Under the pieces are notes generated by a model. The model searched no databases. It had not been told where the DNA came from and worked only from the letters and a program-made list of their open reading frames with translations. Below, piece after piece: positions 60,973 to 64,000 of a DNA stretch of 64,000 nucleotides (its first letter is position 1; every line of letters begins with the position of its first letter). The stretch covers positions 1,921,366 through 1,985,365 of the forward strand of contig OZ245020.1 in the NCBI GenBank assembly GCA_965223865.1. Direction: 5' to 3'. The translations under genes were made by a program, and so were the position numbers. The stretch is from Nitrosarchaeum sp. (lineage in GTDB: Archaea > Thermoproteota > Nitrososphaeria > Nitrososphaerales > Nitrosopumilaceae).

Positions 60973-61056
60973 CTAGTCCTCGTAGAAAATCCAGGAAAGT
61001 CCTCTTACTTCTTCCCATGTCTGGTTTGATTCGTTTTGGTTACAATGATTTGCCAT
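60973..61056 (-). CDS. Putative 27-aa leaderless peptide MANHCNQNESNQTWEEVRGLSWIFYED
   Basis: ATG 22 nt downstream of TTTTAAGTA box; followed by short hairpin and T-run. Confidence 0.4.
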   Translation of the reverse strand: MANHCNQNESNQTWEEVRGLSWIFYED

Positions 61057-61077
61057 TGTATTGTTTTTTCAAAAATT

Positions 61078-61099
61078 TACTTAAAAGCAAAACGAATGA
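61078..61099 (-). promoter_or_regulatory. BRE/TATA promoter copy A (cgttttgcTTTTAAGTA)
   Basis: Near-identical to copy B at 61266-61287. Confidence 0.6.
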
Positions 61100-61160
61100 T
61101 TTGTTCATACAAATCATCAGTGATTTGTATTGATGACAGAATTATTAAAAAAATAATTTG

Positions 61161-61245
61161 AAAGGATGGGCCAAAGTGGCCTGCCCATCCATGGAAAGTT
61201 ATGGTCGGTTAAACGGTTAGATGACTCCTACTCGCGTTGAATTCC
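61161..61245 (-). ncRNA. Candidate about 85-nt small RNA ending in GC-rich hairpin (GGAUGGGC...GCCCAUCC) plus U-run
   Basis: GC-rich island in AT-rich intergenic DNA, promoter 21 nt upstream, no start codon at the predicted 5' end. Confidence 0.5.
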
Positions 61246-61265: not shown

Positions 61266-61287
61266 TACTTAAAAGGCAAACGTATGA
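61266..61287 (-). promoter_or_regulatory. BRE/TATA promoter copy B (cgtttgccTTTTAAGTA)
   Basis: Duplicate of 61078-61099. Confidence 0.6.
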
Positions 61288-61338
61288 ATCATCAGTATGA
61301 TCTAAATACTATTCGTGCAATATTGTAAATAATCTTCA

Positions 61339-61388
61339 TTGGATCTGTCACCAAGATACTGCCGGTGGTTTTTGGTCTTAAGATCCAA
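61339..61388 (+). ncRNA. Solo copy of CUGUC-[hairpin]-CUUAAG structured motif
   Basis: TTGGATCT-GTC-ACCAAGA...TTTTGGT-CTTA-AGATCCAA: perfect 8-bp lower stem and the same internal loop as the triplet at 63.7-63.9 kb. Confidence 0.6.
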
Positions 61389-61719
61389 CATTTAATTTTA
61401 ATTTCAAAAGATTGACTCGATTGATAAAGAGAACCAAATTAGATAATTTTTGACAAAACAATAACGAATTTTCAATAAAATCAAATATGTAACATTCCAA
61501 AGTCTTGGATTTTGTTGATAGAATCAAGCGCACCGTGTACTCATTGCATGATAGAGCATGCTTCTGGAGTAAGTTGTTCATGTCCATGTCATGATTATGG
61601 AGAATAGAGCAAATGATCGGATTGTGTAGCAGATGTTTTTCCTCTGGAGTGTCACTGATTCTATCTGAAGAAACCTTTGAGGCATTGTGTGACAAGTGTA
61701 GAAACTCTAAAGATTGATT

Positions 61720-63083: not shown

Positions 63084-63686
63084 TCAGAAATTATTCTCAA
63101 AAACTAGTTCAGATAAGGGTAATTGTCCCCCTCTAGGAGAGGCTTGTTTTGTTGCTTTTCCGACCACAACCATCATTGCAATCACATGATCGCCAGGTAG
63201 TTTGATCAATTTACCTACTTTCTCATAATCAAAGCCCTTCATGGGGCATGTATCATATCCCATAGATTTTGCTGCAAGCATTATTGTTTGGGCAGCCATG
63301 CCACAAGACCTCATTGCCTCATCTCTTTGCTGTTGGGGTTTTTCACGGTAAGAATTTTTCAGAGAATCAACTAGAGCATTTCGAGGTTCTTTGGGAATAT
63401 TTTTCCAATATCGTTGAGGGTCTTTATTCCATGAATTCAGATCAGCACATAGTATTATCACTAATGATGCCTCTGATACTTGTTTTTGACCATGAGATAG
63501 TTCAGATAGTTTGTCTTTTAATTCCTGATTTGTAACAATTACAAAACGCCAATTTTGAATGTTGTATGAGGTAGGAGACAGAATGGCAGATTCCAAAATT
63601 TGTGTAATTTCATTTTTTGTAATTTTGTGATTAATATCAAAGCTTTTGATCGATCGTCTTTTCTTTATTGCATCAAAGGTATTCAT
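63084..63686 (-). CDS. Nitroreductase family protein
   Basis: RRSIK, SPTSYNIQNW, GYDTCPM.GFD. Confidence 0.92.
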   Translation of the reverse strand: MNTFDAIKKRRSIKSFDINHKITKNEITQILESAILSPTSYNIQNWRFVIVTNQELKDKLSELSHGQKQVSEASLVIILCADLNSWNKDPQRYWKNIPKEPRNALVDSLKNSYREKPQQQRDEAMRSCGMAAQTIMLAAKSMGYDTCPMKGFDYEKVGKLIKLPGDHVIAMMVVVGKATKQASPRGGQLPLSELVFENNF

Positions 63687-63726
63687 GACTTGGTTTTAAT
63701 AATCTCTAAATTTAATTCAATAAAAG

Positions 63727-63867
63727 AAAAGAGTTGAGCTTAAGACCAACTACCAAAAGGTATGTTGATGACAGCTCGTTTGCTTAAGGTCAGCAATGGT
63801 GATTACTGACGACAGCGTTTGTCTTAAGATCTCCAGCGTCGGCACGGAGATGACAGACCAACCTTTT
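63727..63867 (-). ncRNA. Tandem triplet of CUGUC-[variable hairpin]-CUUAAG structured units (unknown family)
   Basis: Three 40-44-nt units with invariant flanks and unrelated but pairing stems; TATA-like CTTAAAGTA at about 63904-63912 upstream and T-rich tract downstream on - strand. Confidence 0.7.
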
Positions 63868-64000
63868 CAATTAATTTATGAGAATTCGATAGTTAACTAG
63901 GACTACTTTAAGATACTAGTGCCAAATTTGGAATTATTTAACACTATAGTGATTTTCAGATAGTGTATTTATTAGGCCAAAATTGTCTCTTTGCTAAATG

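Follow-up and report, generated by a model that had tools for sequence, protein, structure and literature searches.

An orphan family of small structured RNAs with a conserved GUC/CUUA internal loop in ammonia-oxidising archaea

Results and discussion

The solo hairpin and its surroundings

The window analysed here is a stretch of 64,000 nucleotides (C1:1921366-1985365) from the 2.01-Mb genome of Nitrosarchaeum sp. (genome G000; 34% G+C, 99.98% complete). On its + strand, a hairpin standing alone (61339..61388) was located in 0.7 kb of non-coding DNA, with a metallophosphatase gene on one side and two Cys-rich micro-ORFs on the other, beyond which follow a DsbA-like thioredoxin gene, a nitroreductase gene and an RNA with three further hairpins, the triple RNA. 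An original prediction, made from the letters of the window, had described this hairpin with a perfect 8-bp lower stem, as an inverted copy sharing its GUC/CUUA loop with three tandem hairpins of the - strand; its letters and its pairing were recovered as written, and the tandem hairpins were present 2.3 kb away.

The lower stem of the solo hairpin pairs 61339-61346 (TTGGATCT) with 61381-61388 (AGATCCAA) in 8 perfect base pairs and is followed by an internal loop in which GUC (61347-61349) stands opposite CUUA (61377-61380). Above the loop, ACCAAGA (61350-61356) pairs with TTTTGGT (61370-61376) in an upper stem of 7 bp with a single G-U pair (G61355-U61371), and the apical part of 13 nt (TACTGCCGGTGGT, 61357-61369) allows a few extra pairs. 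Folded as RNA, the + strand reached -18.8 kcal/mol (z -3.30), a value equalled by 0/200 shuffled sequences, versus -15.1 kcal/mol (z -2.20; equalled by 5/200) for the - strand, and the hairpin scored 67.5 bits with the covariance model described below. All 50 letters were unchanged at the orthologous locus in two other genomes (loci L021, L023 and L032), whereas the 25 nt preceding the hairpin showed up to 8 differences between the same loci. An identical hairpin between differing flanks agrees with the proposal that the solo copy did not arise by local duplication.

Several elements flank the hairpin on the same strand. A TATA-like octamer (CTAAATAC, 61302..61309) lies 29 nt before the stem and is the putative promoter of a hairpin RNA, and the T-rich stretch directly after the hairpin (CATTTAATTTTAATTTC, 61389..61408) is a possible transcription stop site. 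Further upstream, a second TATA-like element (ACTTAAAAGG) followed by a conserved box (GTATGAATCATCAGTATGAT) occupies 61266..61301, as seen in an alignment of the genome's own copies and with nhmmer; this element could act as an operator or as a promoter, either a second or a bidirectional one. The nhmmer profile of this region matched all 6 hairpin loci from which it was built, plus one further place without a hairpin in a full-length but weak match (E 0.22). The profile was used instead of a loose search for the box, which at 2 mismatches gave 418 matches, mostly random.

Copies in the window and in the genome

When the window was scanned for CTGTC-N18-40-CTTAAG, 4 matches were obtained, the solo hairpin on the + strand and three on the - strand (63739-63774, 63783-63815 and 63823-63856, spanning 63739-63856), compared to a mean of 0.68 in shuffled windows, 0/100 of which reached 4. 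Genome-wide, the search against shuffles that had been proposed as a check gave a divided answer. The bare pattern, with a gap of 14-50 nt and on both strands, was found 16 times in the real genome versus 18-38 times in 12 dinucleotide-preserving shuffles and was not enriched, so that a test based on it alone would have failed. Once the upper stem had to hold 4 pairs or more and the lower stem 3 or more, 11 copies remained in the genome and 0-1 in the same number of shuffles (ten with 0, two with 1).

A covariance model built from these 11 copies recovered the same 11 from their own genome at 49.6-69.1 bits, together with one degenerate copy at 35.6 bits and one weak match at 21.3 bits. The degenerate copy (L019, C1:1899475-1899569) carries an apical insertion of ~40 nt and altered loop letters (CUCUC .. 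CUUAAA).

Covariation and the folding strand

The pairing of the stems was compared with that of shuffled sequences in two sets. Among the 11 copies of the window's genome, 88.6% of the cells were paired versus 75.9% in shuffles, and 11/17 pairs were changed on both sides versus 4.1 in shuffles, values reached by 0/500 shuffles in either case. Among 107 distinct archaeal sequences, aligned by fitting to the covariance model, which itself favours covariation, 88.1% of the cells were paired versus 76.0 ± 0.5% in shuffles, there were 208 double-sided changes versus 68.4, and the covariation score was 0.366 versus 0.161 in shuffles, slid partners giving no more than 0.143, again with 0/500 shuffles reaching each value. 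In this larger set, the number of pairs with a double change (13/17 versus 11.7) was not significant, as 98/500 shuffles reached it.

The internal loop hardly varies. In all 79 archaeal rows of one alignment (A4), U14, C15, C43, U44, A46 and the closing C-G and U-A pairs were invariant, and the two other loop letters were nearly so (G13 in 76/79, U45 in 78/79). The closing C-G and U-A pairs lie below the loop and a nearly fixed ACCAA/UUGGU helix above it, with a variable apical part. The structural selection that had been proposed for the family is thus borne out by its pairing, its double changes and its near-invariant loop. In the genome row L099, the first hairpin of the triple RNA has UUC opposite CUAA, G13 having become U and U45 having become A together; this double change would turn the juxtaposed G13/A46 and U14/U45, the proposed G.A and U.U contacts, into U-A pairs, and from a single case hints at which loop letters face each other.

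The helices also point to one strand. Among 110 distinct sequences they hold 106 G-U cells versus 19 A-C cells, and at the only pair where the search pattern permitted both kinds there were 11 U-G and 0 C-A. The forward fold was better than the reverse in 54/73 loci. The excess of G-U over A-C and the better forward folds indicate that the CUGUC-to-CUUAAG strand is the one that folds, which is the functional orientation originally predicted.

Phylogenetic distribution

When the covariance model was run on a first sample of 41 genomes, 12 matched, with 6/6 other genomes of the window's genus, 11/24 in its family (Nitrosopumilaceae) and 0/16 from elsewhere in the order. When the family was sampled more widely, 67/151 genomes from 14/27 genera matched. 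Nine hairpin-bearing genera gave 6/6, 7/7, 8/9, 9/9, 8/9, 9/9, 2/2, 9/9 and 2/2, three genera were sporadic (1/10, 2/10 and 1/9) and ten had no match (e.g. 0/9, 0/9 and 0/5), which is to be read as not found rather than absent, since the family samples include incomplete genomes. With 11 strong copies in one genome and this spread over the family, the hairpin is dispersed, as had been proposed; a lack of further copies here or in relatives, named in advance as the outcome that would speak against the proposal, was not observed.

An exact-pattern scan of one genome per species returned at least 115 stretches. Among the 80 listed, 73 were titled as ammonia-oxidising archaea (Nitrosopumilus, Nitrosarchaeum, Nitrosotenuis, Nitrosotalea, Nitrosomaritimum and Nitrosopumilaceae among them) and 7 were bacterial. 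One of the 73 was titled Nitrososphaeraceae, its hairpin and shown flanks being 4 letters off a Nitrosopumilaceae record. With the covariance model, the bacterial stretches scored 17.2-20.3 bits, mostly as local matches without the lower stem, whereas the archaeal ones scored 26.7-66.9 bits; the former were taken as chance on these grounds. The pattern had 0 matches in viral contigs, on which ground viral carriage was rejected. In these samples, the hairpin family is restricted to a portion of a single family of ammonia-oxidising archaea.

Promoter-like boxes and T-runs around single copies

A TATA-like octamer was found upstream of 51 copies, either as CTAAATAC or as one of the variants CTATATAC, CTTTATAC, CTAAATAT and CTAAATAG. 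Its distance to the first paired base was 19-21 nt in 26 copies and 14-23 nt in 39. In 12 others, mostly of the window's genus (28-31 nt there), it was 25-31 nt, with the solo copy at 29 nt. For calibration, TATA-like hexamers were counted upstream of 1028 ORFs of at least 200 aa of the genome, where their counts rise to 30-35 between -31 and -27 from the ATG over a background of ~10. The spacing of the octamer at most single copies is thus that found at the leaderless genes of the genome. By analogy with these, transcription would start where the stem begins or, in the solo copy, 5-9 nt upstream of that point (~61330-61334).

On the other side of the hairpin, T-runs of at least 5 were present within 40 nt in 50/98 distinct copies, compared to 13/98 upstream and 14/98 on the other strand. 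The fixed spacing of the TATA-like box and the T-runs that follow suggest that the single copies are stand-alone genes for RNAs of ~55-75 nt. In the solo copy, a longer transcript that ends with the hairpin is just as plausible, given the 28-31 nt spacing of the genus and the second TATA-like element upstream. This second element and its conserved box (AGAAATCATCAGTATGAT) lie 26-39 nt further upstream of the octamer of single copies, and at the one locus checked (L028) an element of the AGAAATCATCAGTATGAT type also had the ATG of a small divergent gene 20 nt away, so it may act as a bidirectional or second promoter.

A third arrangement, besides the single copies and the triple, is present as one copy per genome in many relatives, in which the hairpin is extended by UGCA...UGCA. 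It lies between the stop codon of a gene for a 126-aa protein and a CATAAAAG box oriented towards a cupredoxin gene of the opposite strand. As this box is 26-27 nt before the hairpin, it might, at a guess, also serve the hairpin itself. The 126-aa protein belongs to no Pfam family (best E 0.0078, below the cut-off). In the window's genome both genes of this locus are kept and the hairpin was not found, so single copies are dispensable.

The same 3' features would be compatible with a transcription stop or a 3'-end protection element that would end and stabilise any incoming transcript without being a functional RNA itself, the loop being read by the termination or decay machinery. Besides the T-runs, such a role would account for the opposite-strand ORFs that converge and end within ~50 nt of the hairpin in 16/37 loci, tying it to gene ends, for the cupredoxin-locus hairpin that abuts a stop codon and for the position of the triple array between two promoter-like boxes. 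However, T-runs alone suffice for termination in archaea, and an internal loop held invariant in 14 genera would be unexpected in a mere terminator; moreover, three hairpins closed by a stem are not the layout of a terminator, and the convergent genes would read the hairpin on the strand with A-C mismatches. We regard such a role as unlikely and continue to favour small RNA genes at the single copies.

A cloverleaf of three hairpins upstream of a nitroreductase gene

The three - strand hairpins of the window (63819-63860, 63780-63818 and 63734-63779) are predicted to fold into a cloverleaf RNA of ~150 nt (63720..63868; -52.7 kcal/mol, z -5.99), in which GAAAAG (63868-63863) pairs with CUUUUC (~63731-63726) as a closing stem, and a T-tract follows at 63719-63730. 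A TATA-like element (GTTAACTAT, 63889..63897), which precedes the closing stem by 20 nt as counted to its first G, is the putative promoter of this RNA, read as GTTAAATATC in 8/9 aligned genomes and as GTTAACTATC in that of the window. Downstream on the same strand lies the nitroreductase gene (63084-63686; 200 aa; Pfam PF00881, E 7.2e-37), whose matches in NCBIfam to named nitroreductases and to BluB were all sub-threshold, and which has a TATA-like element of its own (TTAAATTT, 63708-63715) 21 nt before the ATG.

This order was the same in 9 genomes from several genera: a TATA-like box, 20 nt, GAAAAGG, three hairpins linked by 5 nt, CCUUUU that closes the stem and a T-tract, after which the TTAAATTT box comes next ~20 nt before the ATG of the nitroreductase. 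The triple form was upstream of this gene in 9/9 aligned loci. Without any imposed structure, RNAalifold returned the same four-way cloverleaf from the 9 genomes, with 15/42 pairs compensated, the closing stem itself showing hardly any variation. The T-tract and the separate TATA-like box before the ATG indicate that the triple array is probably outside the nitroreductase mRNA.

A compact hairpin with an invariant internal loop, in a tandem array fixed upstream of one enzyme gene in 9 genomes, might also be a small ligand-sensing aptamer, riboswitch-like, the triple exerting cooperative control of the downstream nitroreductase; tandem small hairpins are known from the guanidine-II and NAD+-I riboswitches. 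But the T-tract and the box before the ATG separate the array from the gene, the single copies have no consistent downstream gene and a 3x4 loop is small for a binding pocket, so an aptamer appears quite improbable and a separate RNA remains our preferred reading of the triple.

Upstream of the triple, the region 63913-63976 (read on the - strand) contains a 20-mer, CCTAATAAATACACTATCTG, near-invariant in the 9 genomes (two single-letter differences), and a CACTAG-type box, CACTAGTA, which is CATTAGTA or CACTCGTA in 3/9 genomes. The window ends at position 64000 with contig C1 itself, ~130 nt upstream of the triple RNA, where relatives have a divergent FAD/NAD-type gene that is cut off here by the contig end.

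Comparison with known RNAs and repeats

At the gathering threshold, Rfam 15 had 0 matches in the whole window, and at E up to 10 none overlapped beyond the first 6 bases of 61339-61388 or beyond the first 7 bases of the triple RNA (63720-63868), the nearest being snoR122 (61266-61344, - strand) and ES036 (63708-63740). No description of a GUC/CUUA hairpin motif was found in the literature searched. The passages of PMC5069720 consulted contained none, and three motif strings had 0 matches in one supplement of that paper; the passages of PMC13475601 consulted mention, of RNAs, only SRP and RNase P; and, by search terms, the main texts of PMC5737381 and of bioRxiv 10.64898/2026.10.21.760802 do not mention the archaeal group, although the supplement of either could list archaeal motifs. 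The hairpin is thus an undescribed orphan family of small structured RNAs with three genomic forms.

The 11-copy alignment was read on both strands for C/D box features. C/D box RNAs are defined by a box C (RUGAUGA) and a box D (CUGA), with a 3-nt bulge plus tandem sheared G.A pairs, and none of these was found. The hairpins resemble archaeal C/D box sRNA genes, with their L7Ae-bound K-turn, as many small intergenic genes of ~55-70 nt whose ends pair, but lack the boxes, and the C/D models of Rfam matched sub-threshold and outside the hairpin only. A K-turn was rejected because the loop reads GUC/CUUA on one strand and UAAG/GAC on the other, and setting it in a K-turn register would disrupt the conserved upper helix. 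Likewise, the 11-nt tetraloop receptor and a reverse-strand UAA/GAN loop, as these are usually defined, would either break the conserved helix or need the strand with A-C mismatches, and a bulge-helix-bulge splice site was discarded as the loop of the hairpin is not staggered. For rRNA mimicry, as in a ribosomal-protein operator, no GUC/CUUA loop with paired flanks was detected in a 5.9-kb stretch that was placed around a 16S rRNA primer site so as to take in, presumably, both the 16S and the 23S gene.

Repeats of DNA were considered as well. A CRISPR array was discarded because the three units of the triple differ in both stems and have 5-nt linkers without spacers. Like REP/BIME elements with their RAYT, the hairpins are dispersed, imperfect, intergenic palindromes on both strands, sometimes clustered, and since DNA hairpins also tolerate G-T pairs, they might be DNA-level repeats, either REP-like or transposon ends, or sites for recombination or protein binding in single-stranded or cruciform DNA. 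In contrast to such elements, they are low-copy, with ~11 copies, their stems differ and are compensated, and they occupy orthologous sites across genera at a fixed spacing to a TATA-like box. The Y1 transposase (PF01797) had 0 matches in the 99.98% complete genome, compared to matches in 6/14 control genomes, which together with the 11 strong copies and their differing stems led us to reject a REP or IS200-IS605 element; the lack of the pattern in viral contigs also argues against DNA repeats of any of these kinds, which we consider very improbable. The structured RNA is retained as the preferred reading.

In layout, the family appears closest to the bacterial CsrB/RsmZ-type decoy RNAs or to the iron-responsive elements bound by IRP/aconitase, without a shared sequence feature. 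As in a CsrB/RsmZ-like RNA with multiple sites, three same-loop hairpins stand under one closing stem in 9 genomes; several short hairpin motifs on one RNA with single copies elsewhere, and conserved unpaired letters framed by variable stems, are common to both. They differ in that the CsrB/RsmZ RNAs are bacterial, hold 5-20 sites (three in the archaeal family), carry GGA in apical loops instead of an internal GUC/CUUA loop, have their single sites in mRNA leaders instead of in putative stand-alone RNAs, and bind CsrA, no CsrA-like partner being known here. The iron-responsive elements are built like the hairpin, with a lower stem, an upper helix of 5-7 bp and, between the two, a small asymmetric loop or bulge, and they likewise occur singly or in tandem; unlike the hairpin, these elements have a conserved apical loop (CAGUGN), whereas the apical part varies here, and lie in untranslated regions of mRNAs, whereas the archaeal hairpins appear to be separate genes. 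The tandem ToxI repeats of type III toxin-antitoxin systems also present a promoter, tandem RNA units, a stop signal and a protein gene in this order, but the units of the triple are non-identical and closed into a cloverleaf, and the downstream gene encodes a nitroreductase (PF00881) with its own promoter-like box and not an endoribonuclease.

Protein genes next to the hairpins

A gene for a 42-aa protein with a CxxC..H..H arrangement was divergent to the hairpin, 80-289 nt upstream of it, at 11 loci in 8 genomes of 3 genera; three of these loci are in the window's genome (C1:1884303-1884431, 1862015-1862143 and 747911-748024) and 8 in relatives. From the spacing of its Cys and His residues the protein may be read as a zinc finger, and in Pfam it matched DUF7128 at sub-threshold level only. 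The adjacency is a suggestive clue to a partner. By phyletic profile, however, this candidate was rejected, as the protein family was found in 134/151 genomes (a tally that includes the unpublished genomes G095, G109 and G110, on which no other result draws) and 26/27 genera, among them genera without the hairpin, and so fails to track the hairpin with its 67/151 genomes.

Other ORFs, of ~60 aa and AbrB/MazE-like, converge on the hairpin and have their stop inside it. In the window's genome they were located at C1:1883935-1884135, ~744809-745000 and ~647700-647900, two of them without an ATG start; the Pfam match to MazE_antitoxin (E 0.019) was below the cut-off. That the single-hairpin RNAs of the genus are mainly cis-antisense regulators of these genes in the manner of type I toxin-antitoxin systems has a very small chance of being correct, for, although a conserved ORF stops inside the hairpin at three places (1884, 745 and 648 kb) and the arrangement recurs at two loci of a congener (L033 and L043), it concerns a minority of copies in one genus, is inapplicable to the solo copy, the triple and the cupredoxin-locus form, rests on a weak protein match and leaves the invariant loop unexplained.

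A candidate protein-docking module

The covarying stems, the invariant loop with its fixed closing pairs, the near-fixed helix and the variable apex suggest a recognition site and not a mere stable hairpin, and the occurrence of the same site once on many small RNAs and three times on a closed RNA favours a module on which a protein docks. Our best explanation for the hairpins is hence a family of small structured RNAs made from the CUGUC strand that would act as protein-docking modules, with the cloverleaf as a multivalent scaffold or decoy, a statement that in its entirety has about an even chance of being right. Its first part, a real structured RNA on the CUGUC-to-CUUAAG strand, is more secure than the whole, and the part that takes the invariant loop as the protein site is less so. 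Fold, strand, family, range and genomic context are shown by the comparisons above, transcription with its two ends is inferred from them, and protein binding follows more weakly.

According to this model, the RNA would be read from CUGUC to CUUAAG from the TATA-like box ~20 nt upstream (29 nt at the solo copy), would start at the base of the lower stem or within a few nucleotides upstream and would end, probably, within the T-rich stretch, giving a product of ~55-75 nt with little beyond the hairpin. Its core, the asymmetric loop with 5' GUC opposite 5' CUUA framed by the fixed pairs and the ACCAA/UUGGU helix, would be the docking site of a dedicated RNA-binding protein. Each single-hairpin gene would supply one such site, and the cloverleaf before the nitroreductase gene would supply three per molecule, as a scaffold or as a titrating decoy.

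A broader proposal, in which about ten stand-alone RNAs of 55-75 nt per genome, each offering a single invariant loop to a dedicated protein, and the cloverleaf decoy or scaffold by the nitroreductase gene form an RNA-protein regulatory system with a tie to light or oxidative stress, is possible but on balance doubtful. If true, it would mean control at the RNA level tied to light or oxidative stress in these archaea. Should the loop indeed bind a protein, that protein would be a new RNA-binding regulator of archaea. Ammonia-oxidising archaea carry out a major step of the global nitrogen cycle and are among the most abundant microbes of the ocean, and no description of regulatory RNAs in them was found in the literature searched. 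The family has been given exact coordinates and a covariance model, and its three genomic forms and clear phylogenetic range are known, so that whether these archaea use small RNAs and regulators that bind them is now a testable question; the spacing from promoter to hairpin offers a handle for annotating small genes in such AT-rich genomes.

Other conserved elements near the solo hairpin

Immediately before the solo hairpin lies another conserved non-coding unit (61067-61245, + strand), made up of a TATA-like box, a hairpin (GGATGGGC..GCCCATCC) and then TATGGTCGGTTAAACGGTTAGATGACTCCTAC. It has 3 copies in the genome and is retained at the orthologous loci, and its sole signal in Rfam, a fluoride riboswitch at 11.2 bits versus a gathering score of 34, fits chance. 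Next to it, on the - strand, a micro-ORF of 27 aa (60973-61056) that ends in ..SWEEVRGLSWIFYED is without a Pfam family, and translation of the paralogous loci near C1:923.5 kb and 1862.2 kb yields similar peptides. The two Cys/His-rich micro-ORFs downstream of the solo hairpin (61512-61607 and 61613-61717, + strand) encode 31 and 34 aa, respectively; in a more distant orthologue of the 31-aa one, the frame and the stop are kept and the changes are mostly synonymous.
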